64,000 bases of DNA from Psilocybe cubensis. Lineage: Eukaryota. How positions within the stretch are numbered: position 1 is the first letter of the stretch; every line of letters begins with the position of its first letter. Location: NCBI GenBank assembly GCA_017499595.2, contig CM039009.1:2356001-2420000 (forward strand), read 5' to 3'. The notes under the pieces were generated by a model. That model ran no database searches. It was not told the DNA's origin and saw only the letters and a program-made list of their open reading frames with translations. A program made the position numbers and the translations under genes. Positions 43,656 to 59,976 of this stretch are shown here, piece after piece.

Positions 43656-46600
43656 GTTGAAGTAGAAAAGTCAGTGGAAGTGATGTTCTTGTGTACGAAT
43701 GATGAGAGTGGGTAACTCAGTCCACTTTTTATACTCGAGATTTGTTGTTTTATTATTTGCGGAAGCAAATAGAAAATCCTCAGTATGATGTCAGAGCACC
43801 GCGGGAGCGGTAGTCTTTTGCCTTTAGAACCTGTAAAAACTAATTGGTTTCGGTCTAAAAGACAAGATAGCGTACTCAAGAGCACGATAGTGTGATTTGG
43901 GACGCTAGCATCACTCCAACGTAATCTATTGTAGAGAAGTGGAGCTTAAATGATATCAATGTCTTCTCTCGTAGTATATGTTCAAGGTATATTGTTGCTA
44001 TCGCATTATCTGGTACCTCAGCAAGGTGATGTGGAGTGAACCTAAGCCATCTACCTATGGAAGCAGTTACAAATTCTCACGAAAAGGTATAACAACGAGT
44101 GAACTTCTTGATTCTATGTCATTTAAACTAATTTAGCAGACAAGCTCGAGCACAGGTCCCACTTTTTCCATGGGTCCTGCTGGCGTAAGTGTATATAGTG
44201 CTGTCAGACTTTCTTCGATTTCGCTATTGTACAACAATTACCATGATCAGTTCTCCTAGAACAGAAAATTTATACGAAAGCGATTTGGACATTGCACATA
44301 CAGCAGGTAAACAATAGTAGGAACATTGAATGACTCGTTGAAAAGCGAGAGGTGTTTGTTTCCTTTACAAATATACTACACCCAGAACATGTTCAAAGTT
44401 GGTGTACACCGATTTATGCATACACGGAGGCACAGCGCATCAGCCAAAATGTCAAAGGTTAGTATGCGGGGAGAAATGAGTGCATATCCGAACACTATAA
44501 TCAATAGCGGTGTGTGCATCATTTTCGGCAGTTTGAGTCGTTGAAACCAATTGCAAGAGGTGAAAACGATGGCCAACAAAATTTGGGAAGACACATGGCC
44601 TTAGACGAAACCTATAGACCGGGAACAGGCTCAAAGCGGATAGGAAACAAAACATACCATGCACCTGTCCAACGCGGATGCAAAATAATACCACCATGTG
44701 CGAAATATGTGGAAGTTAGCGGGAAATATTGAAGAGGGACGCGCAGGCAGAGCGTTTAACCCCATAAATGGCGGTTATTGAGAGGTCAAGATACTGACGC
44801 ACGGGTACTATGAGTGATAGTGTCTTGTTTCCGACGTCGGCTATGCCCAAATACATTGAGCCTGATGAGGAGTGCATACGCTTGAAGCTGTTTAACGGTC
44901 AGACAGGACCATATATATAGTAGAACTCACACTCAATTTCGTATCTTCATTTACGTAGCATTCAGCGCTCAGCTTCCGGACTTCCCTTTCCAACTTCAAG
45001 CTTCACAGTCCAAGCCAGATACACATGCGTTGAAGATCGATGGCAAAGCAATATTAGGGGGTGAAAGACAGGGTATTTAATGAGTGTAGTTATTGATAAC
45101 CAGCTAGAATATCAGGGTGTGTCGATGGTAGGAAACAAGAGGATGGAAAGGTTTTGTGGCCTTGCTGTGAAACAGTAAGGTTCCCCACTGTCGAAATTCA
45201 CCGTTTTAGGAAGGAGCCAAATAAAAGCACATACAGTTCTGCTGTAATGAAACTCTCGAAAGTTGAGTCTTTTGACATATTTGCTATCACTGCTTCGGCC
45301 AAATAGATGCATATACCGTTCTGCTAAAATTGAACCTCTCGAAAGTCTTTTGAGAGGTTCGACTTTCGATGAAAGTTATGTCTTTTGACATGCTTACCTT
45401 TATAATGCTTCAACTAAATATAGGTACATGCAGATCTGATGTAAGAATCCGTTCCCATATTATCTTATCTTCACAGCTCTACTCTAATTTAATATATTCA
45501 CTTCTTCCATTTCTTTCTCTATTATTTCGAGTGGCATTAGCCCAGTCTATGATGCTTGATTCGCAATATAATTATTTTGGGTGCATCAACAAGTTTTGTT
45601 CCACTTATCCTAAGTTCAAGAAGGTCACCATTCTAAAACCGCCCCCACTAAAGACTCCCAATCCTTTCAAATGATCGCCTAAGACACACATTCTTGTAAA
45701 CTAGGTAACACCATCCTTTCATCCCTGGAGTTTACCCTCCAGAGCAATCTGATTTGGTATGTGAGTACTCATTCACAATTTATTTTGACAGTACAATGTT
45801 CAGATTACAATACTTGCCAGAAACCGTTAATGAGGAGATTGCTACTTCAGTAAACCGAGGGGCAATAACTCAAGATGAACTTTTGTCATTTTGTCATCAA
45901 TATTAATATGCTCACACCGCTACTAACTTAAATTTCCAGAGACCAATCTGATATTATAAAAGGCAGCCCGACTAAGAGCGCAAGAAGACATTAAATACAG
46001 TAGTTGAGATTAGTTATGTTATTGGTTGGGGAAATCAAATGAACCCTTTGGCTGTTAAATCATTTTCAGTAACGAAAAGTTGGCATTGCGTGATGATAAA
46101 CTTTTCCACAGCAAGGCCCTATCGCCAGCGGCGATGCTTGATCTACTAAGCGTTGACAAAACGTTAGAAAATGGATGCGGGCTGTTGGAGATGCCAAAAA
46201 TAGCAACTAAATCTCCGATTAAAATAATTGATCCGGAATCTCACGACCGTAAAACATCTCGACTAACACGAGTTAAGATTTAATATTAACAACCATGCCG
46301 GTTCAAGGGTTGAACGTAAAACCTTGAACAATAATATATCGTTGTGTAGGATAAGGTGACATATATTGGTTGGTTTCCCAACTAACATCCCTCATTGACA
46401 TGACACGTACGATAAATCATCACGCATCACTGGCAGGGTCATTCTTGTGTAGGGATCCACGCTTCAGTTACATGAGTGTTAGAACAAATCGAACATGAAG
46501 ATCATGTGTCACGAGGGACGGAAGGAATCTCTACGGCCTTGTTCCATCGAAGCAAATAAAAATCAGAAGCTCTAGGACCCTGGAAGAGGACACGGAATTT

Positions 46601-47494
46601 TACCAATGTCCGACAACACCACTTGTGATCTTTTCCCATAATATTGAAGGCCAGGACTGGGCCATATTCCAGGATCCTGGAGGGACAGCTCCAAAGTCGC
46701 TTCAAACCTGATTAATATGATTATCCTGACCGGCAGAATGAGTAGGAATACTTCTACCCCAGGAAAGCATTGCCACAGAAGCTCTCAGTGCTGCAACCAG
46801 TAATCATGATGCAATCGATCCGAAGATTTTCTTCCTTTTGATAGCAAGTATTTTGGGTATAACCCCACAAAGCATGTAAAGATGTTAACCGTGTTACAAA
46901 GAAGCTTTGTAGCACTCGCAAAGGATCGGAGGGTGATTACGCCCGCGCTGTATATTTGGAAACATCAAGCTGCAATGTAATGATTTGTTGATAACTGTGG
47001 AAATCAAACTTTTATGTTTTTGTAGTCACGCTCGTGGTACAGTGGCATTGCTTGATAGTAGGTCAATCTTATATAATGAGTTACTATAAAGCTATCTGCT
47101 ACGACTACGTGTGAGTAAATGGGACAGGTATTGCGGTACAAACGAAAGTCTTCTAGGTTAATCCCAGTTCAAATGAATACGTCAAGGGTGTAGTAGGACC
47201 CTGGGTATCGATAACGGGTCTATTTCAAGGGTTTGTGGTCATAATTCTGCCTTGTTCGGTTCGGGAAATTTTATTTTCAACTTTACTGCAAGTAATATGA
47301 ACATCTAAAACGAACAAGTGAATAATTTCACACATTTTTATAGCTGAACGAACGTATAAAATCCAAACGTCGTTTCTGTATACATACCAGCCCAACATTT
47401 GTACTTCAAAATCCTAGTAAGCCTCCACCATCGCATTGGAAGATTTCCCGAGATTCATCTTCAAATTTATATCTTACCACAGCACGCAAATTCG

Positions 47495-48205
47495 ATGTTG
47501 AACTTTGTCAGTCTCGCTTCGCTCGCTTTGGCAGCATTGTACTTGGTATCCCCAGTTATAGGCCACGGTCATGTAACCGTCCCCCCCAGTCGCCAAGAAC
47601 GTTGCCGCGCTGGAGAAGTACCGAACTGCGGTGGCGCCCAATGGGAACCACAGAGTGTCGAAGGTTTAGCGGGGTCATTTGCCTGTAACGGGGATGGAGC
47701 ACGTTTTCAAGAACTCAACGACAATTCCTTATTCCAGAACGCCTATTTCACTGTCCCAGAAGGCACCGAAGAACTCGCCTTTACTTGGGTATTAACCGCA
47801 CCGCACAGGACCCTGGTTTGGGAATACTTCGTACTCACCCAGGACAACACCCTTTTGCTTTCGGAGCCAGGATTTAACGTCACCCCTCCGGCAATCGTGA
47901 CCCACCCGGTTCCATTGAATGGAATTAAAGGGAGGCAGACAGTCCTTGCGCGATGGACCATTGGCGATACCCAGAACGCTTTCTATTCCTGTGTCGATCT
48001 CTTGATCGGAGCTGCTGAGACAGCCACTGCCGTTGCTGGAGCAGTCGCTACACCAATGCCCGTTGCGATGCCCTACGGATTCCATGATTCACTCGGCCAT
48101 GAGAATTCCGCCAACCGCTCGGACTCTTCCAGTGCTGAATCGAGTCGCGCGGGTGCACACAAGGCCATCCAAAACTTCCTGTACATTCAGGGACCACAGT
48201 CCTGA
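47495..48205 (+). CDS. AA10 lytic polysaccharide monooxygenase (chitin-binding type), intronless, secreted
   Basis: Signal peptide, then N-terminal His in HGHVTVPPSRQERC, WEPQSVEG, second His in LTAPHRT, and WTIGDTQNAFYSCVDL with the axial Phe typical of AA10. Confidence 0.93.
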   Translation: MLNFVSLASLALAALYLVSPVIGHGHVTVPPSRQERCRAGEVPNCGGAQWEPQSVEGLAGSFACNGDGARFQELNDNSLFQNAYFTVPEGTEELAFTWVLTAPHRTLVWEYFVLTQDNTLLLSEPGFNVTPPAIVTHPVPLNGIKGRQTVLARWTIGDTQNAFYSCVDLLIGAAETATAVAGAVATPMPVAMPYGFHDSLGHENSANRSDSSSAESSRAGAHKAIQNFLYIQGPQS

Positions 48206-50589
48206 AGCATCGACTCCTTCCCTTCCCCCGCGGAGCAACGGAGAGTGTTTCCATAATCATTTTCATCGACTGATTATACATAGTTGGTCGTTAAATTTCC
48301 ATAGTTTGAGTTAGTCATTAAAAATGCACTAAAAAGAAATTTTTGTACTTTCCAAATAGCCAAATGTAAAATTGAATTCGGAATCATCAAATCGACACAA
48401 GTGAGTTGGATCTATTGATGAGCAATTATTAATTAAGTATTGCTCCTTACATTCAAGGCCCATCATTATCACCGTTTTTTAACAAGCAAGCAGGTACACG
48501 GCCCAACCATCGTTGGACCATACGCTTATACAATCAAATTCAATTCCGTTCAATCTGCTCCATGTTCGACATACCGGGCACCCCGTATACCACAGACTGG
48601 AAGATGATTGGTGAATCAGTACGTTCGGAGTGATTATGTTGAGACGGAGATCAAATGTTGTCTGGGAAACTCGGTGGCAATGCAAATGGAGCTGACGTAA
48701 TCCTGAGACAAGTGCCAAACGTTCGAATGAATCCATAAAAGTCGTACATCGTATAAGTGAGTATGCAATGATTCAGGGCAAGGAAAGATCGGTATCAAAC
48801 AGCAATATACCGACTATGTATACCAGTTCTTTGGATCCTAGCAACGACCAACCTGCTAGTCATCGGCCAGAAAGAAATTGACAGTCTACATTCCGTTGGT
48901 CGCAATATGAGGTTTTGGTATGAGATGCAATGTCTGAATCAGGAGTACAGGGAATGAGCCCTCGGGAAAAGTCGTCACTGTAAATTGGTCGGTTTTGCTA
49001 CCTAGCTGTGAGTGATCATTTCCCCTCTTCATGCCGGAACTCCTTCATTGAGAATTGGTGTCTTCCCAGACATTCCCCGTTGTGCTTACCACTCACATGT
49101 ACAATCAAATCTATGTTCAACATGGCTCGCTCTCGTAAAATGGAGAAAGAACAGCGAGTTGAATATAGATTCGAATGTACTTGTGAGAGGAACAGGGGTT
49201 AACGTATAAAGGAAGACTCGAGGATTGAGGAATGTATGGATTTGGACAAAGCAGAGGGCACGTTTCCTTTAGTAATGAAGGAATATGGTACGTTATATTC
49301 AATCCATGAGCCAGATTTGATGTTTAAGCGGACACTAGAGAACGTGAGTCTAAAAGATCAAGGAAAGGAACTTATACTGCTTCCACTAGTGCTGAGGTCA
49401 AAGAGATGGGGTGTACTATGGGGAAAGCCTGATAAACTATCCGGATATTTATGCCTTTCATGTAATCATTCCAGCTTATTGTGTGCTCAACTTGCATATT
49501 TCCAGAAACGACTTGAAAGTTTATGGGCCCATCTTTCATACAAAGTTATAGCCTGGGCCACTCGGACTGCATTTCTGACGCCTTGGCCTCATGTCCCAAA
49601 CAGCGATATCAATTGAGGAAGTCGTCGGTGTCTGTGGGCCACTGCGCTGCCTGTAACATCACAAAGACACCCATTGGCACATTCACTCCTGAGTCATCAG
49701 AGACGTACAATCCTGAGCGGTGATAAGCCGTGTCGCGCTACGAGCGCGTTCCCACGACTGCGCGTTCCCACGATATGCCGCGCGCGGCATCAATCATCGG
49801 CCTTTACCCACGAACTTCGACATCCACGACATCCTCCTCCCCTCGTCAACCAGATCGCCCTCCACCGACATTATTACTGTTAGGCGCCTTCAGCTTTACC
49901 CCCTATTGCGCGCGACACGCCCCCGATCAAGCCTCGTGGAGTAGTCAACATGTTTCCCACGTTTCGGCGCGTTCCCACGCTTAGGCCGTCGCGATCGACT
50001 TAGTGAAAATGCGCAAATTAGAGCGCTTCCTCCCGCCTCATGTCTCGAAAACAACTCCTATTCCACTTATTCTCGCACATTCGATAGCTTTCTATTCCCC
50101 CTATTCTACATTATGTGCAGAAGAATCTTGGTTCACAGATACTAGACAAATAGAGTAACTTTTGGCCCCTTAGAATACCATTCTCCCCAAGTATCTCTCA
50201 TTTTTGCGAAATACCATCAATTTTCTGTGTTTCTCTGCGTCGTCTCGAGTTGCGTTTAAGTATACATCGTACTGCGTCTACCAGCGTCGTTTCCCATTGT
50301 CACCTTGCATTTTTGCGCATTGGACGCTGCCACTCGGTTTCCTGCTTGAAATTAATCAGTTATGTGGGTCAGTAGTGTACAAATGGTGTATCTAAACTAT
50401 GGCTGACTTGAGGTGCAAAAAATCCCGAATTGGCCGTGAAGTCAACTGTGGCTGAACTCATCCCAACAGCACTAAAAGACAGAAGCTCTTACAATTAGTG
50501 AAGGGCACAGGAAATTTACCTTGCAGGAGAAGCGAGGGAAGTGCAAGGGAAGTGCAGTGCAGGAAGTGCGGGCAGTGCGACGTGCGCTA

Positions 50590-50660
50590 GTGGCTTAGGG
50601 ACGTGGACGATTGGCTGAGGGACGTGCGGAAGTGGCTGATGGACGTGCATGTGCGTGCGT
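50590..50660. repeat. Degenerate 21-bp minisatellite
   Basis: Three units: gtggcttagggacgtggacga / ttggctgagggacgtgcggaa / gtggctgatggacgtgcatgt. Confidence 0.6.
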
Positions 50661-51528
50661 GGGTTCGAACCGTGTTGAAGCAGGTCGGGGTGATGGAGCG
50701 TGGTATAAATTGACTTCAAACAAACTTGTGTCGTCTTTCTTGGTCGTCACTGTTCCTCTGCATTGAATGAGGCTTGTACCACTAAATAAAGTCATATTAT
50801 GATAGATAGTAGTGTACCAACTGAATAGAAGTGAATTTATAAGTTATTTAATCAATGAACGTGTGTTGAGCTAAGAATTGAGGCCCGGGCTAGTTTGCAA
50901 TTGGTGAGCGACTATCCTTGTATGAATGAAATATTAAACCACATACCTCGAGTTCGATGTCATCCCATTCTCAACCACCAAAGTTGAAGTATTCTGGTGC
51001 GTCGCCGTGGGTAAAAATTTGCGATGATTATGGTATTATTGTTGACAAACTCCGCACAAGCTCGCCACTACGGCATTTATACCAAACACTTTGTGAGATT
51101 TCGCTTCCGAATCCTTCAGCCGTGCCATCATAATAAGGCATCAGGCAAAATCAGGGATATGATGTACTTTGGATGTACTCTGAAATTCATCAAATATAGG
51201 AAGTAAAACCATCCGTCGACTCAGCATTTGGACGTCATTAGGTCAATGATTTGGGGACCTTTATATTACTTTAATGAATGTGGTATTCCATAATATAGGG
51301 GAAACACGCTTATCTGATTTTCCATGCCCGCCTGATATTTTATTTGACATTGCCTGCTTTCTTGGTAGTTAAATGCATACACCCAGATTTGTTTCCTTAT
51401 CAATAGTATTTTTAACACTATTTTAAGTACTTAACTGTGTTCTAAACATATCAATTGCTTTTGTATTTATTTTGCTTTGCTAGCAGCTCTTAAAAAATAT
51501 ATCTATAGAATGAAAGCCAATCTCAATT

Positions 51529-52520
51529 TTAAATAAGGTCCTGATGAATCTCGTTTCCAGTGACGTGGCTGGCTCTTTCAACATGATCTCGTCTGGGTCG
51601 CTGGTAAAGAGATATAAAATCCGTCTTCAGGGATTTCCAGACCGGCTTTCCGGCTTGCATCTGTTTCCTTGTATAGTATATCCCAAGGACTCCTATAACC
51701 AATCCCAAGACTCCCAAAGGGATTGAAGAAGCTAAACTAGCGATATCGCCATTGGATAGACCATTGGATTGCTCTCCAGTGGATGGTGCTGTTGCTGTGG
51801 GTGTCGCCGGTACATTTGTTATGGATGTGCTTGCAAAGAAGGGAGCTGCTGTTGTCGATGTTGCAGTGTTGGTATCATAAATGGTAGTACTGCTCTGCGA
51901 TATGATGTGACCAGCGTTTGAAGTAGATAAAAATGTGGTCGAAGATCCAGTGCTCTTACTTGATGTCCCCTGGATGGTAGCTACAGGACGGAGGAAAAAT
52001 ATATCCCACCCATCGCTGTCCAAGATTATCTGCCCAATATTAGCGTAAATAAATATTTGACGAACACAATTACACACCGACTCAGGTAAGCCAGAGGATG
52101 GATTAATTCCAACTACCCACCAAGGTCCTGCATCATTGCTATTTGCAGAGAACCTGGAATAAGATAGTTTGTTAGCATCATGGTCAACCGCATGTAAGAC
52201 TTCTTGGGACACAACTTGTACCATCCTAGTCCAAATGTCGATGGGGACAGATACCACAGAATGGGTGTTGGCTCTGTCAATGTATTATTTATGTCCACCG
52301 CTGAGCGGCCTATGCACATTCCTGAGCTGACACTGCATACAGATCTCAGGCTCGAGCTTTGGTCTCCAGATACATTCCATTGCTGGCTGGTCGCTCCTGG
52401 AAGAAAAACCGAGATTGTGGGCTGGAACTGTGAAGTAGGATTAAGGGTTATATAGTACTCTACATTCTGTGGTTGATAAAAGAGATTGAATACTCCAACT
52501 GGTATAGCCATGGATCCCAT
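51529..52520 (-). CDS. Single-pass membrane protein: possible ricin-B/beta-trefoil-like N-domain, Ser/Thr stalk, TM helix (spliced)
   Basis: A QxW-like motif SQQWNV in the N-domain, a Ser/Thr-rich tract, TM IPLGVLGLVIGVLGIYY followed by basic residues. No clear signal peptide. Confidence 0.65.
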
Positions 52521-52892
52521 TTAGGTCATAAATAATGGGTTAATGACTATTAGTCGAAGTAAAACTGAGTGAACTCAGTGACAGATGAATGAGAACAAAG
52601 AAAAGCACACCACTCTTCGTGTCCCAATTGAGTGGGCTGCGGGATCATCCTGTTTGTGATGACTTTTCAATTGACCTATAAAAACCGTCTCTGCCACCTT
52701 GCCTCCACTCATCCAATGAAATGCTATGTTGCTATTAATAGTCGTGTTTAGATTCTTTACCTTTGCTCAACAGTCATTGGTTGATAAATGTCTTTGAGAG
52801 AACTATTGGGTTTGAATACATACAGCACTATTGTTCACATAGATACATCAATACCTCCCAACGCTACTATTTTATTTAGAAGTACTTGGATT

Positions 52893-52994
52893 TGCGGGAA
52901 TACTGTTAAACGCTTGAACGGAAAGGAGCAGGGTATTGTTCTGGGTAAAAACAAAGTATTCCCAAGACTGGGTGCGGTGCGCTGTTGTAAGAAC
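52893..52994 (-). pseudogene. About 100-bp fragment of an AA10 LPMO gene
   Basis: Near-identical DNA to ~57199-57299. Encodes VLTTAHRTQSWEYFVFTQNNTLLLSVQAFNSIPA. Confidence 0.9.
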
Positions 52995-53714
52995 GCACGA
53001 GCCTTTTATGAGTCTGAAGCGTTATTTATGTAACGTAAACAAGTAATTAATTGCTGTCCTTGTGGATATCTGCAGATCCGAACCTGGGATTGGCAGACGC
53101 CGAAGGCTACTTCGAACCATCGGAGTTTATATATTTGATCATCAGCCGGGGTTTGAATGACGGGGCGTAACAGGCAAAACCTAGCCGATTGATGGCGGAT
53201 CAGAATCGGCATTACTATTACTTCGAGGCCTATCAACGTGTAAGAAACGAGCCCTCTTGACTTGCTCTTAACTATTCCTTTGATCTCAATATGATACCAA
53301 CAACTAGTTCAAATGTATTGACTACTTATATATAAATCTACGCTACATCATAATTTCAGTTGTTAGACCATTGACAGTACTCGATAATTAGTCGCAGAGC
53401 GCCCTGATTTCGCTCATGCCAGATAAGGTGCGTAAACATGTCGCCAAAATACTCTTTAATGTATCTGTCCTTAATTTTAGTCCAAGGTTTCTCGGTATAT
53501 AATGACATATTCAGGAAAGGGAGTTACATCAAGCCAAATGAACTTGTTATGGCCAACACAACATTCATCTAAACGGGACAAGCATTGCTTCAATTCATTG
53601 AATTTACGGTAAACGCTACAGCTACGAGACATCCTAGAAAGTTGCCTTCAATAGAATTTCAATCACCATACTCCATCAATACATGAACGCGCAGTCTAAA
53701 CAAAGATATAGTGA

Positions 53715-55636
53715 GGGCACCAGGAAATCAGCGTGGTTAGCCCGCGTGCGACATATTTTTGCGTGCCACGCGTAAATGTCAATCAATAAATTTGCGTGTC
53801 CTTCATATGACTTTGCGTGCAAAATGCTAGATGTCGCGTGTGCATGATATGTAAATGCGTGCAGCATCGTTGAGGTACCGTGCTATTTGCGTGCAACTTT
53901 CTGTATAAAATTCACATGAAGAGCAGTGTACATTACGCTGTTTTCTGCAAGGAATGCAGTATGCTAGCCATCCAGTTGTACCTAAATGATTCATTCTCAA
54001 CCAGATAAAACTACTTAATTGAGGGTCTAATAATGGTTTAGCGAGCCTTGATCCATTGTTTTGGAATAAGGGCTCAGCCTACTAAGCCGAGGCTAGATAT
54101 TTCTGCCTTTAATATCTATGGATTAGGGGCCACATGTGTTATTGGATGAACTATCAATGGGGATACGGGGTTGGGAGAACGTTTTGATATTTACATCTAT
54201 GCAGGAAGTTAGAGGGAAAGGGTAGTTGGAATGTTACTTTAATATATCCGAATTGTGTTTCAAAATACCCATTCCCATTACGATGTCTAATGTTGTCACC
54301 AAGCGCCTCTTAGAGGAACAGGATTATAATCCCTTTTATCCTCCATTATTCACTGACTTCTTGCATTAGTAACCGACGGGGTTAGTCACAACAAACTGGA
54401 GTGAAAACACGGGACCGTCGGGGGAGAGACGCCGTTCGTTGTATAAATCGAGGAGATTCAAACCAGAAATTCCGATAAAACGACGCACTCACACGGCGTT
54501 CATCTTGCTCGGACGACTAAGAAGACCCGGTACTACGAGTGCTCCGCCGCGCGCACTTCGGTTTGCATCGTGCATGGCTTGGATACGGAATCCTTGTCAC
54601 AGTAGCTTGGTTTACTGTCGGACTTGGGAAAGATTTTATTTGTTGCCTTAACAAGCAATCTTCCCAGACGGTGAGGTATTTGCATGGCATAATTTGTAAT
54701 TGCTTCTTTGAAACAGTGCAATCTTTAGTTTCACTTTTTGCTTTCTTTAAGAGCTTTGAAACATATATTTAATGGCACATCCAGATATATTTTGCAGAGG
54801 AATATTCCAAAACGCAATATTTCATACTCGCGTGCACGGTAAAACTGTTTGCGGGGTCGTCGCGTGCAGATCACAACTGTCTGCGTGTCGATTGCACGCA
54901 TTTAGTTGGGTCGCGTGCCGTCGCGGGCCATCGCGTTTCATCGCGTGTACGTGGGAAAATGGGTTGCGTGCTGCTTGCGTGGCAAGTGCGTGAAAACGAG
55001 TGCACCTAGCGTGCTGTGGTGTCACGCTGGTGGTTGTTCAACGATATAAATGCATGTCAAAAAAGCAAAATTGTGGTTTTTCTTTCAAGTTGACGAGGTG
55101 ATCGGATGTTACCGATCATAAACGGCTGCCGTTTGCAATGCCGACGCTTGGTTGCTGCGTCGGAGATTGATGCGAGGCACATGCCGAGGGCCACGGCATA
55201 CGAAAGTCGTGCCTCGAGTTCGTGTATACTAGATGGGTTTTGTAAGAATGATTCTCCGTTGAAGTTCTACTGGAGCCAGAACCTCAAACACACAAAATTT
55301 TCATGTATTATAGACCTGTAAAGGCATTATATAAATAAAATACAACATCAACCATGCAACCATCTGCATCCTGTTAGCACTGTTTGATACCCGTGTGGTG
55401 GCTACGCATGAACTGGTATAGCACAAGAGGATACTGTCATTGGCACATACCAATATACATAAATGAACGCTGACGAGAACCATTATATTACAGCCTTACG
55501 TGTGACACAACTGTGACATTGCGTGCAGAACACATCAATATGCGTGCAGAACATAGTTGTTGCGCAAAAATGCGTGTCACGCAGGCACACGCAAAAACGC
55601 ACGCACGCGAGCAGCCACGCTGATTTCTGTATGCCC
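53715..55636. mobile_element. Non-autonomous Mutator-like (MULE) DNA transposon
   Basis: 9-bp direct repeat ATATAGTGA at 53706-53714 and 55637-55645. Imperfect TIRs GGGCACCAGGAAATCAGCGTGG and, on the reverse strand, GGGCATACAGAAATCAGCGTGG. Dense subterminal GCGTG repeats. No transposase ORF. Confidence 0.82.
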
Positions 55637-55655
55637 ATATAGTGAGCTTGTAAAT

Positions 55656-56140
55656 CTAATCAGATGTGTAAAACATACGTTTCAATGGAAGTACGTGAGC
55701 AAAGATGCCTTCATCAACCCACCCAGATCCCACTGCGAGCATAGCATCCCTCTCCCTCTCAAAGATCGTGTACCAGTGGTCGCCAACGCTTGGCTTGGAA
55801 AGCTCGTACAATGGAACAGTTCCACACTCCTTCCTCTCCTTGGCATACATATATGCCCTAATACCGTTGTTCGCAAGTCCACTCGGCGCGGGGACAGAGC
55901 CGTCTGCCGAGAGGACGTACTGATAGTCGGTCGTAGATGGGTTAAAAAAAAAGATAAACCGGGACAGTGGAGTTTTGTGGGGTCGCCCACGCGCAGAAAT
56001 TGTCTCCCTGGAAGGTCCACTCTGCAGCACTGGCTGGTACATCGTTGTTGACAAAGAGCCAGCGCTGGTCGACATTGTGGGTGGTGCGACCTGCATCCCA
56101 CATGGTCACGTATCGCGCAGTGAGCTTGGGGTCTGCACAT
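55656..56140 (-). pseudogene. DUF5648-like repeat protein, frameshifted and apparently 5'-truncated
   Basis: CADPKLTARYV...STVPVYLFF is broken at a 9-nt A run (55944-55952). It continues NPSTTDYQYVL...TVPLYELSKPSVGDHWYTIFERERDAML..GWVDEGIFAHV. Confidence 0.7.
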
Positions 56141-56894
56141 TTATCTTTGTTTGAAGACTTTAGAAGGAATTAATGGAGACGTTTTTCAACATCACAATAA
56201 AATGACGAACTGGTGATTTTTCTGGGGTGGTGGAGGCAGCCTCAGCACCCAGGCTGAAGAAGCACAGGATGACTGAGAGTCCGCTTGTCAAGACAGTTTT
56301 TAATAACATTGCAGGTAAGTTGTTTCTTGCGTATGTGCACTGAGGATTGGTGTATTGGGTGAATTGGATGGATGTGCGTCGTTAAATAACAATCTTTGTA
56401 ATGAGCTAAATTTATTGTGTGAGCTATTTGAGGTTTAGAAGCCTTCTCAACTTGGCTACTCTGTCCTAATACGCGTCCTAGTGTCATGTATTCAATTCTT
56501 CAACTTCCCTAGTGGAACAAATATGACGACCATCCAACATCCAGCATTAGCCCGTGAATTAATGACCGGGGATTGTAGTTTGCCTGTTCTAATTGATTAT
56601 TGCATTCACGTTATGCAGCTTCAAGTCTGAAGTAGACGAAATAGAATGAACTAGTCAATACCTGCACACAATATCATAGCATCCTTCAATTTACAGCTCA
56701 TACTAAACAGTTCTAGAAACAGTTACGTACTTTTCCCAATATCAAAAATACCTCAAAATGCTACTGTGTTACTCTGAGGCTCTAAGATTCCAAATCAATA
56801 ACATTGTTTTTAGCTTAATCATCTAAACTTATTCTACGATCAAAATAGAATTTAACTTTAAAACATGGAAGACCAAAGTCAAGGCTAAATGGGT

Positions 56895-57593
56895 TCATGG
56901 ATTACCATACCAGCGAAACTTTGGAGAAAGACAAGGTGGCGTAAATCTAGGGGGTCCTGGGATCGACGGAGGCGTGTTTCTAGGGGGATCTAGGGTCGAA
57001 GTGGAGGTTGAAGTTGAAGTTGAGGTGAAAGTTGAAGTTGAAGTTGAAGTTGAAGTTGAAATAGAAGTCGGTTTCCCTTCAACAAACAGATCTATACAAG
57101 CGTAAAACGCATTCTCGGTATCCCCAATGCTCCAACGTGCAAGGATGGTGTGTTTTCCCTTGATGCCTTTCAAAGGAACGAGTTGGGTGGTAGGGTTGGC
57201 GGGAATAGTATTAAACGCCTGAACGGAAAGGAGTAAGGTATTGTTCTGGGTGAGAACAAAGTATTCCCAAGACTGGGTGCGGTGCGCTGTTGTGAGAACC
57301 CAGGTCATGTTGAGAGAGTCGACGCCGGGGGGAACGACGAGGAAATGATCTGCCCATAATGCCTCATCGGCAAGCTCGTGAAATCGGTCTCCACCGCCGT
57401 CGCAGCGGAAGGATCCTTTCTTGGCCTCCACGCTCTGAGGCTCCCATTGAATGTTTCCGCATCCAGGAACCTCACGCTTCTGGCAGCGCTCCTGTCGACT
57501 GGGCGGTATGGTAACATGACCGTGGCCCATTGCGGGAACCACCGCATTCATCGCCGCAACGACAAGGAACGCAACACTAATGACTTTGAACAT
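56895..57593 (-). CDS. AA10 lytic polysaccharide monooxygenase, intronless, secreted, with a (ST)n/Pro-rich tail
   Basis: Signal peptide, then HGHVTIPPSRQERC, WEPQSVEA, LTTAHRT and WSIGDTENAFYACIDL. A GTTGAA microsatellite encodes STSTST. Confidence 0.93.
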   Translation of the reverse strand: MFKVISVAFLVVAAMNAVVPAMGHGHVTIPPSRQERCQKREVPGCGNIQWEPQSVEAKKGSFRCDGGGDRFHELADEALWADHFLVVPPGVDSLNMTWVLTTAHRTQSWEYFVLTQNNTLLLSVQAFNTIPANPTTQLVPLKGIKGKHTILARWSIGDTENAFYACIDLFVEGKPTSISTSTSTSTSTFTSTSTSTSTSTLDPPRNTPPSIPGPPRFTPPCLSPKFRWYGNP

Positions 57594-58952
57594 GAGGTTC
57601 TTCCAGATCGTGGTTAGTATGAGCTGTTTGCAAAGCTATACGAGAGACTGCACACCTGTGGATATCGGCAGAGGGAAATATGAAAGTAGAAAATGCTGCC
57701 CAGACCTCCAGTTTATGTATTTTCTACAACCAGAAAAGAGGAACAACGTCGTTGTATCCGACACATTCATATGTTTTAGTAAAGTCTCTGAGGCAGGGCG
57801 ACTTGTAGACGCTGAAACTCTGTGCCCTATCTGTTAGCCAGTGTGGTAGAAATGTGAATTGACATCGCTTTTACGACAAGCGTGGACGGAAGATATCGTA
57901 GTGATGTATCTGGTTTCTTATTCAAATCAATGGGAGTGAATTAAGCCCCACAGACTATTAAACCTTTGGACGTTTGCCTTACCGTCACACGGTGAAACAT
58001 TCATATGAATGCAACACATTAGTGCAATAAAATCTGATGAAGGCAGTTTGACTACCACCTCCTCACGCATGAAAACCACTTCCCAGCTCACGCCCTCATG
58101 CAACTACTATCAATGCCGCTTCGTTTTTGGTCGAGGCATAACTTGCTTACCCATGGACGGAACATGCTGTATGTCTACGCCTGCTGCCCCTTGATGGATA
58201 TCACCGTCTCCCTGAGGCAGGGTGATCTCGATTGATGTCTGGTTGTGGGATGATGATCAATGTTTGACTTGGGTGCATGCTTAATTGTTCAACACAATCT
58301 CTTATATCCGAACGCTACGTAAGTGTAGGTCCCGACGATTGATGCAACACCGGAACGAATAAGTACCGGAGACAAAGCTGGGAAACATAACACATAATGG
58401 GCGTTAATGGTGTTTGGATTGATTTCACTTGCATAGGTTTCGAATAACAGTACTAAGTCTGTAGTTGCTGAAAGGTCTTGAAACCCATTTTCGACAACAA
58501 GGATAGGCGTTTGTACACACAATACCCTCATGTAATATTTTATCCTTTGACTCGATTTCCGTACACTGCGGGACCGGAATGTGAACCCTCCGTACATTTC
58601 AGGTACTCAGGCAACGCTCCTGTAATTAACTCTCGTAGTTCAGTTTTTCTATATGAATTCAGAAAAGATTCTAAAAAAAAACATGATACTGCAATACAAT
58701 CATGTCACTGACGTACAAGTAGGCCAGTCTAGACAGGGCCAATCTTGTCCTATGTACTCCCAGGCCTCTAGATATCCATCCCCATGCAATATTTACTTGC
58801 GTTTCATCAGACTAAATTTCCGTTCTGTCAATTATTTCTCTTAGTCATGGCAACACCAAAGGCCTATAAAATGTGCACGACATTTTTTATCTCCTCCTTA
58901 CCTTCACTACCAAGCTCCAACACTCTAGTGTCCTTCTTGTAATTGCAACAAT

Positions 58953-59976
58953 ATGACCGCCGACTCCAGCACCGACCAAGAAAGGAGGATTTCATTCTAT
59001 TACGATGAACTGGACAAAGAAGTCGAGTTGGTATTAGCGTTCGGCTCCGCTCAAGATTCCTACGGAGACACGGAATCTCTCTGCTGGAGCAAGTGATGCG
59101 CATCTTGGAATATTCAACAAATGCTGACTTCATTTACACAGGGGTAGTAAAATGGAGAGCCCATTGCGGCCCCGGTGTAGCGACTTTCACGTACACTGGA
59201 AAAACAGGCTTTGCTATCCCAAGTGTCAGTTTTAACCTGGCGATCATACAGCTTTGAAAGTAGCTTATGTATAGCGTGTCTGTAGGCTGATACCGGACGC
59301 GTTGTAGATGGATCGCCCACGGTTCTTTGCCAGGTATAATTAAACATCATTTGGCGCATTTGCGATACCAATTGATATTTTTATCTAGGCTGGCCAGCGA
59401 TGCACAATGGCGACGAATGATGAAGGCAAAAACTATTTCACGCCTGCAGTTGATGATGATAATCTCCGAGCTATTTCATGCCACATTAAAACTGCGTCCC
59501 CGGCTGATATCGCTTTTGTATGTCAATTGTTTACATTCCTCACTTGGTATACCGTGTTGCTTAAACCTTTGATTTGTAGGGAACAACGAATGGGCTTAAC
59601 GACAAAGAAATACTACCCATAATGAGGTACAGAAACCTTGGGTACGTTAGAGCGGTCTAATCATTCTGTTCCCACATTGATTCCCTAACTGCGCTACCTA
59701 GGCCGGATTGTACCCTTTCCGTGAAATTAACTCCTATCTTGCGCGTCTATGCCGTTAAGGGGTACCATGGTGAGCCAGTCCTCTGTGAACTGCGTTTATA
59801 CGTGACTCTGAACATATCCTGTTGATTAATAAATAGGTCAAGATGTTATCACTCCAGACTTAGACTCGAACGTAGTACTTAGTGTGGACCTTACCTCACT
59901 TCCTCAATTTACGCAATGGGGTGTTTCCTTTGACAAGGATAGCGACCGCGTCATAATTACGCGTCAAACTGATTAA
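58953..59976 (+). CDS. Uncharacterised family X, paralog 6 (spliced; first intron GC-AG)
   Basis: RRISFYYDELDKEVELVLAF...SLCW, YTGKTGFAIPS, GQRCTMATNDEGKNYFT, VKLTPILRVYAVKGYH, then ...RVIITRQTD*. Confidence 0.8.

Follow-up and report, generated by a model that had tools for sequence, protein, structure and literature searches.

Two short AA10 genes of Psilocybe cubensis in an Agaricomycete lineage of probable actinobacterial ancestry

Surveys of lytic polysaccharide monooxygenases (LPMOs) describe family AA10 as essentially bacterial and viral, with the smut fungi as the fungal exception. We analysed a stretch of 64,000 nucleotides (nt) from the mushroom Psilocybe cubensis (GenBank assembly GCA_017499595.2, contig CM039009.1, positions 2,356,001 to 2,420,000; the window hereafter), which carries two complete AA10 genes, designated A and B. 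Both are probably functional paralogues of a minimal AA10 family that extends across the Agaricomycetes, was patchily kept there, and had an ancestor from an actinobacterium with a short form resembling JdLPMO10A, a chitin-active AA10 domain of 15.5 kDa from a chitinase of Jonesia denitrificans.

Genes A and B and the surrounding locus

Gene A (47495 to 48205, plus strand) is one open reading frame (ORF) of 236 amino acids (aa) plus stop, and gene B (56895 to 57593, minus strand) is one ORF of 232 aa plus stop. Both matched Pfam family LPMO_10 (PF03067) over profile positions 1-183, gene A with 67.1 bits and gene B with 66.0 bits, against a cut-off of 23. The catalytic domain of 148 residues (residues 24-171) lies at 47564 to 48007 in gene A and, as judged from Pfam and alignment to gene A, at 57081 to 57524 on the minus strand in gene B. 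Over residues 1-171 the two proteins were 58% identical (100/171), and beyond residue 171 they could not be aligned. His24, His104, Trp154, Phe163 and the four cysteines Cys37, Cys45, Cys64 and Cys166 were invariant in an alignment of 17 sequences. The axial Phe163, within an N-A-F-Y segment, was present in 17/17 of these and in 26/26 sequences of a wider alignment; the surface segment EPQSVE and both disulfides were kept in genes A and B. The axial residue is Phe in AA10 and AA15 and Tyr in AA9, according to the accessible part of PMC13353379.

In the alignment, residue 24 of gene A fell on the first residue of mature 5aa7_A (E 1.7e-27 against the Protein Data Bank, PDB), so that cutting of the signal peptide before His24 would yield an N-terminal His. 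The predicted signal peptide of gene A (residues 1-23, 47495 to 47563, plus strand) belongs to an N-terminal region homologous across the Agaricomycete clade described below, and in both genes the hydrophobic leader of 23 residues is presumably removed just before His24. An AlphaFold model of gene A had a mean predicted local distance difference test score (pLDDT) of 96.9 at residues 24-175, and this model together with Foldseek predicted the immunoglobulin-like beta-sandwich fold of LPMOs. The top Foldseek match was 5aa7_A (template modelling score, TM, 0.87/0.93; root-mean-square deviation, rmsd, 2.0; 41% identity). The nine best chains belonged to 5aa7, EfCBM33A, CBP21, SliLPMO10E, BtLPMO10A and Lmo2467, and ranks 1-35 were all AA10 or CBM33 entries, among 52 matches at E <= 0.001. 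The cellulose-active CelS2 (4oy7) was found at rank 32 with TM 0.62.

Gene A is identical to the P. cubensis protein annotated in GenBank as 'Lytic chitin monooxygenase' (P0003), minus the 15 extra N-terminal residues of that model. The public model includes a 5' mini-exon at 47076-47108 that is spliced to a point shortly before the ATG at 47495; it would place 15 residues ahead of the signal peptide, and other clade members begin at the position of 47495. A possible GT donor was noticed at the last codons of gene B. The initial annotation had described two complete, secreted, single-exon AA10 genes with His-brace residues and axial Phe between spliced fungal genes. The ORFs, Pfam matches and alignments agree with that description, to which the mini-exon adds a qualification: 'single-exon' has its basis in the ORFs together with the start that clade members have in common (M-[ILT]-N-...).

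The two C-terminal tails are of different origin. The tail of gene A (residues 172-236, 48008 to 48202, plus strand) was found, by alignment of 26 members, to be the clade's own. It consists, in order, of an Ala/Thr-rich segment, 'Q-x-P-I-G-M-P', 'N-x-S-x-S-A-N' and a conserved C-terminal end, which reads '..IQGP.S' in Agaricineae (gene A included) and '..THKGSS' in Mycena. As pLDDT was below 50 at mature residues 153-207, this tail is a conserved C-terminal region of predicted disorder. A glycosylphosphatidylinositol anchor on the gene A tail was considered and set aside, the C-terminus having no hydrophobic end. Gene A carries both the leader and the tail of the clade, and gene B the leader only. 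The tail of gene B (56898 to 57080, minus strand), made up of a (Ser-Thr)n repeat and, after it, a Pro-rich end, gave no alignment with the clade tail; judged from the sequences, gene B has swapped the clade tail for this one, which is new in gene B only. The proposal that both genes acquired different tails thus applies to gene B but not to gene A, whose tail is ancestral within the clade. The Ser/Thr-Pro tail of gene B would probably serve as an O-glycosylated linker or wall tether.

For examination of the locus, four public runs were mapped to positions 45500-59500: X1, X5 and X11 of DNA, and X14, guessed to be of RNA. The raw Illumina DNA depth of X11 (both directions summed) was 37-54x in four bins over genes A and B and 38-60x in the single-copy flanks, and it exceeded the single-copy level only over the repeats 50170-51103 and 53439-55773. 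One X1 contig of 17,976 nt ran from the flank into gene A (45500-47660) with zero differences, and another of 11,176 nt ran from gene B into the other flank, from 57264 on. Between genes A and B lies a gene at 51540 to 52584 on the minus strand, for which an X14 contig joined 51540-52029, 52078-52150 and 52213-52584. The skipped parts (introns 52030-52077 and 52151-52212) end CT..AC, that is GT..AG on the minus strand, and these joints were seen in 0/3 DNA runs, indicating that a spliced fungal gene sits between the AA10 genes; no Pfam family matched it. The Dak1/Dak2, AMP-binding and Ubiq_cyt_C_chap domains in the window were each spread over several ORFs, indicating intron-bearing fungal flanking genes.

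Bacterial-type intronless genes in a eukaryotic window could be taken as a sign of bacterial contamination or of a chimeric assembly. Against this, the raw DNA depth is even, contigs of two further studies bridge gene and flank, the two copies are separated by the spliced fungal gene and by fungal repeats, and the GC content at third codon positions (GC3) is about 0.5 versus > 0.9 in actinobacteria. The even depth, the bridging contigs and the spliced transcript of the intervening gene exclude both contamination and chimeric assembly, leaving this explanation with practically no weight, as the initial annotation had anticipated.

Several other features were identified in and between the two genes. 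The relic of a third AA10 copy was found at 52888 to 52997 on the minus strand. This 110-nt, gene-B-like remnant covers codons 98-133 only and has 90% nt identity to 57193-57302. Its 11 differences from gene B are mostly synonymous, with 0.037 nonsynonymous (dN) and 0.41 synonymous (dS) substitutions per site over 36 codons, which suggests that it is what remains of a once-functional B-like copy. The hexamer repeat coding for the (Ser-Thr)n run of gene B (56995 to 57072, minus strand) showed a 63-nt joint that 'goes back' in one X5 contig and in 13 X11 reads, indicating that its length varies from strain to strain.

A multi-copy element of 1.9 kb with 22-nt terminal inverted repeats (82% complementary) occupies 53715 to 55636. 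Read ends stacked at exactly 53715 and 55636, and its X1 depth reached about 36x single-copy. The element was missing from the site in one X5 contig and in 18 X11 reads (joint 53705 to 55637, 10 nt shared), and it has the look of a non-autonomous DNA transposon with insertion polymorphism. An ORF at 55656-56105 (minus strand) with a DUF5648 domain (E 1.6e-13) adjoins this transposon-like element, 0.8 kb from gene B. The repeat at 50170-51103 showed 3-4x single-copy depth in all three DNA runs, with loose read ends at 50503 and 50997.

Relatives, phylogeny and age of the mushroom AA10 proteins

A representative search among 1.84 billion proteins gave 339 matches at E <= 1e-3, including 12 representatives at E 1e-72 to 1e-30. 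By a single-sequence word search, 281 candidates were collected, 220 of them at E <= 1e-5 (120 listed). Among the matches listed were two named fungal relatives, after which identity dropped from 51% to 43% toward bacteria; below the fungal matches stood CBM5/12-bearing and Streptomyces proteins. This drop and the intronless state of genes A and B might be read as a recent, lineage-specific transfer from a bacterium into P. cubensis, followed by duplication. The word search, however, undersampled the fungal relatives compared with a later profile search. With a profile of 12 clade members, 776 proteins were obtained at E <= 1e-20 among 8000 scored (120 listed), and the named members among the matches listed came from at least 13 Agaricomycete species in 8 genera and 3 orders.

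The Agaricineae members were Pholiota conissans, Galerina marginata, Hypholoma sublateritium and P. cubensis (gene A, P0454 and P0458), and the Mycena members were M. sanguinolenta, M. galopus, M. epipterygia, M. capillaripes, M. rebaudengoi and Mycena sp. Roridomyces roridus, Athelia sp. TMB (two proteins) and Botryobasidium botryosum were also included. In the NCBI taxonomy these species belong to Agaricales (Agaricineae and Marasmiineae), Atheliales and Cantharellales. P0454 and P0458 are two more P. cubensis AA10 paralogues outside the window, P0458 being on a contig of 3.08 Mb. The metagenomic members P0004-P0009 were called full-length by prokaryotic gene finders, suggesting that the family is intronless elsewhere too. 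On the prokaryotic side, a scan of one genome per species matched 581 stretches, of which 565 were confirmed as relatives. The best 80 of the 565 were all titled as actinomycete genera, among them Actinoplanes, Micromonospora, Nonomuraea, Amycolatopsis and Streptomyces, with 37-51% identity.

For phylogenetic analysis, 372 hidden Markov model matches were reduced to 322 with the whole domain (which excluded proteins that were incomplete or in two pieces, P0127 and P0133 among them). P0003 was removed as the same as gene A, and the remainder was thinned at 72% identity to 125 rows. The first careful tree was made of 86 hand-picked rows, of which 71 came from the 125 and 15 were smut and Kribbella-type proteins, and it agreed with the quick tree. 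The agaric-type clade (support 100/99) was placed within a short-AA10 clade of 41 rows (100/100), with A and B as sisters (100/94). The smut clade (99/91), with UmAA10 (UMAG_05439) inside, stood beside Kribbella and Stackebrandtia proteins of about 200 aa in the opposite half of the tree. When agaric and smut AA10s were forced together, the log-likelihood difference was 59.7 and the tree was rejected by the approximately unbiased (AU) test (p-AU 0.0159). The trees thus gave no grouping of the mushroom proteins with UMAG_05439 that left bacterial AA10s out; the two fell in separate clades. As far as sequence comparison goes, the mushroom AA10s are a fungal lineage independent of the smut AA10s.

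A further careful tree was made of 66 rows, 43 of the 86 and 23 new ones including the named fungi, over 148 columns. The Agaricomycete clade (100/100) had a stem of 0.44, the stem branch being 0.36-0.44 across the careful trees, and the short clade contained 57 of the 66 rows (100/100). Members clustered largely by taxon. One subclade combined Mycenaceae (87/93) with Athelia and Botryobasidium (92/83); the other contained Hypholoma, Pholiota, Galerina, Psilocybe and metagenome sequences (99/91). The four P. cubensis proteins formed one clade (99/90), in which gene B was the first to branch and gene A was closest to P0454 and P0458 (100/98). These trees support a bacterial origin of the lineage. 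The initial annotation had assigned the genes to a compact actinobacterial AA10 type, and this fits both their place in the short-AA10 clade and 5aa7 as the best structural match. Its local duplication is likewise seen, A and B being local paralogues in the four-copy P. cubensis clade. Of its horizontal transfer, the bacterial origin stands with the trees, but a transfer sporadic to this agaric does not, given at least 13 species in 8 genera.

One fungal protein and one group with a eukaryotic-looking member were noted apart from this lineage. P0494 of the chytrid Borealophlyctis nickersoniae, on a contig of 16,925 nt, is a short AA10 with a leader that groups with Actinoplanes-type bacterial proteins (85/80), apart from the Agaricomycete clade; it is either another independent fungal acquisition or a contaminant contig. 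P0130, P0134, P0136 and P0140, from metagenome and Logan data, carry LysM repeats and group at 100/98 inside the short AA10 clade, and P0134 has Ser/Thr and poly-Asn runs and a hydrophobic C-terminus, giving it a eukaryotic look.

Base composition was next compared. GC and GC3 were 0.54 and 0.54 for gene A and 0.51 and 0.50 for gene B, within or close to the ranges of host ORFs in the window (GC 0.46-0.53, GC3 0.42-0.61), as against GC 0.68-0.72 and GC3 0.91-0.99 for nine actinobacterial homologues. Between genes A and B, dN was 0.33 and dS was saturated, with no estimate from LWL85 or YN00, pointing to long purifying selection on both copies. The fungal composition and the saturated synonymous sites together indicate that the transfer is old and not specific to P. 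cubensis. A recent transfer into P. cubensis is therefore very improbable. It is contradicted by the fully fungal base composition and the A/B saturation, by one clade of many Agaricomycetes with shared signal peptide and tail, and by a best bacterial identity of only about 50%.

We consider it likely that there was one old acquisition, kept in some lineages, and that the Psilocybe expansion included genes A and B and the relic locally. The course of events would have been as follows. A short AA10 passed long ago from an actinobacterium into the Agaricomycetes, and the conserved disordered C-terminal tail would have been gained after entry into fungi. In Psilocybe the family would then have expanded to at least four copies, with gene B diverging first and losing the ancestral tail, and a gene B-type copy may have spawned the further copy of which 110 nt are left.

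Predicted function and known AA10 systems

The closest known system is JdLPMO10A (5aa7/5vg0/5vg1). The 5VG0 and 5VG1 entries have the same sequence as 5aa7 and are JdLPMO10A according to the accessible text of PMC9683017. Like JdLPMO10A, the window genes belong to the LPMO_10 Pfam family and combine minimal size (about 142-150 residues) with His brace, axial Phe and EPQSVE, and they share the short-AA10 clade with it and with the short actinobacterial AA10s. Unlike JdLPMO10A, they are eukaryotic-hosted, have a signal peptide and are free-standing, being neither a chitinase module nor fused to CBM5/12. The mushroom clade further differs from 5aa7 by a 4-residue insertion after 'LNDxxL', by the disordered C-terminal tail and by its long stem.

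UmAA10 of the smut fungus Ustilago (Mycosarcoma) maydis is, to our knowledge, the only characterised fungal AA10. Its cleavage of chitin is at C1, it works on the chitin of fungal walls and it enhances the action of a GH18 chitinase, as described in the accessible part of PMC10617569, where disordered tails are also discussed for it. UmAA10 too belongs to a fungus, has bacterial ancestry and ends in a disordered region, and its demonstrated activity makes it the best functional analogy. It differs in being a separate acquisition, in its catalytic domain of about 170 aa, in its nearest relatives (Kribbella/Stackebrandtia-type AA10s, 49-58%) and in its tail, which is unrelated to that of gene A. 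Tma12 (6if7), the insecticidal fern AA10, is likewise a eukaryotic AA10 but a distant match (sequence E 0.11; Foldseek rank 20, TM 0.71, rmsd 5.4), and this distance provides no basis for an insecticidal role of A and B. The likeness to smut AA10s and Tma12 drawn in the initial annotation thus holds at the family level only.

From the kept catalytic and surface residues, the nearest structures being chitin-active by PDB title, and the activity of UmAA10, we infer secretion, copper binding and chitin C1 activity for the two proteins. By this analogy, genes A and B may well, on balance, encode secreted, copper-dependent chitin LPMOs. After secretion and cutting of the signal peptide, His24 as the new N-terminus and His104 would brace one copper ion, with Phe163 axial. 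The reduced enzyme, with O2 or H2O2, would oxidise C1 of crystalline chitin at the flat face of its beta-sandwich of about 15 kDa, and the oxidised chitin would be opened to GH18 chitinases. The role could be remodelling of the fungus's own wall or feeding on fungal or arthropod chitin.

A and B might instead be copper- or chitin-binding proteins that do not oxidise chitin, or LPMOs acting on cellulose or wall glucan. Gene B gave a sub-threshold BIM1-like match (E 0.043, 14.7 bits versus a cut-off of 27); the paralogue P0458 has no His1; and the clade shows the insertion relative to 5aa7 and the long stem branch. On the other side, both His, the axial Phe, EPQSVE and both disulfides are kept, dN is low against saturated dS, and cellulose-active AA10s are far more distant than the chitin-active nearest structures. 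We regard this alternative as rather unlikely, and chitin oxidation remains our preferred function.

Weighing of the proposed descent and mushroom-like proteins in Actinobacteria

Several observations weigh against the descent and function proposed above. We know of no enzyme assay for any member of the mushroom AA10 clade. P0458 has Asn at the position of the N-terminal copper His, with the second His and the tail kept; it may be a non-catalytic copy, and not every copy need be an enzyme. Expression and gene models of A and B depend on prediction: the RNA-like run X14 had no contig over gene A or B except 32 nt in a simple repeat, and is uninformative on expression. The groups for the AU tests were defined once the quick tree was already known. 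In the 66-row tree the nearest bacterial group was of Actinoplanes type with support of 87/69 only, and a tree in which the 26 short rows of bacterial or unnamed origin form one group was not rejected (p-AU 0.126). The claim is accordingly limited to an actinobacterial-type short AA10 ancestor, with no donor genus. Athelia and Botryobasidium were placed beside Mycenaceae and not below all Agaricales. The initial annotation had set against horizontal transfer a broad presence in Agaricomycetes that tracks the species tree; homologues are indeed widespread there and grouped largely by taxon, but the species tree is not cleanly tracked.

The patchiness could come from fungus-to-fungus transfer instead of loss, that is, from one old bacterial transfer followed by spread among distant Agaricomycetes. 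AA10 and AA11 are missing in the Agaricomycetes examined by a review of fruiting-body genomes, within its accessible text (PMC10282164), and the accessible part of PMC12501645 reports no AA10 found in Suillus. The association of Athelia (Atheliales) and Botryobasidium (Cantharellales) with Mycenaceae is, as a placement in the tree, a weak sign of such spread. In contrast, the grouping of Mycenaceae and the collection of the Agaricineae genera in the other subclade are as vertical descent predicts, and the deep nodes are weakly resolved on 148 columns. Spread between fungi appears the less likely source of the pattern, and a single old acquisition that was kept in some lineages is preferred.

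A complication for a simple one-way transfer comes from Actinobacteria themselves. P0125 (Umezawaea sp.) and P0467 (Streptomyces griseus), of 150-151 aa, have 50-60% identity to mushroom proteins and are closer to the mushroom AA10s than to typical bacterial AA10s. Their place was within the fungal clade in the best trees, and in the best 66-row tree they were sisters (99/96), nested in the Agaricineae subclade. Monophyly of the fungi only was not rejected, with p-AU 0.424 for P0125 alone and 0.198 with P0467 added. Both proteins are without leader and start at the mature N-terminus with Ser for His1, and all four Cys are lost; P0125 is also without the second His.

The G001 family survey covered 401 genomes. 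A short AA10 match at E <= 1e-25 was found in 180/401, a number that counts G285 and G377, both flagged as unpublished, and the mushroom-like form in 1/401 only, genome G078 (E 4.3e-58; next best 1.9e-35). Its gene, at L084 1501-1953, has a GC content of about 0.61 versus 0.64-0.73 around it, and at a distance of 130 nt there is an ORF that encodes a Phage_integrase domain (E 9.4e-11). A round trip may be considered tentatively, though we do not favour it: from an actinobacterium into Agaricomycetes, and from there a Strophariaceae-type copy back into Actinobacteria, surviving in Umezawaea sp. and S. griseus as a leaderless, probably cytoplasmic protein of 150 aa. The Umezawaea gene neighbours one for a tyrosine recombinase, and its GC is below that of its surroundings. 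If true, a gene that was once bacterial would have moved from a fungus to bacteria and changed its function, a kind of transfer that is rarely documented.

Part of this picture was already known, namely the GenBank annotation of the genes and AA10 in Mycena with suspected transfer (2024). In the accessible text of the Mycena genome study (Cell Genomics 2024, PMC11293592), an AA10 LPMO cluster is over-represented in Mycena and horizontal transfer is suggested; the cluster is presented there as Mycena-enriched, without an AA10 tree or donor. Mycena proteins share the 100/100 clade with the window genes, whereas the window locus, compared with the cluster as that text presents it, is in Psilocybe, in the other subclade, and locally duplicated. 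Our literature search found no paper on AA10 in Psilocybe, nor any on how the AA10s of mushrooms are related to those of smuts or to short actinobacterial forms. The analysis thus adds some new context, in that the mushroom AA10s originated independently of those of smuts, are of minimal type, have a conserved tail and expanded in Psilocybe.

Besides the smut enzymes, the mushroom AA10s thus form another, independent line of AA10s in fungi. They are of the smallest LPMO type known, and purifying selection has maintained them in several groups of mushrooms. Knowledge of the LPMO mechanism is unchanged by these findings. They provide a compact, eukaryote-adapted candidate chitin LPMO for biochemistry, and a testable case for chitin remodelling or feeding by mushrooms.

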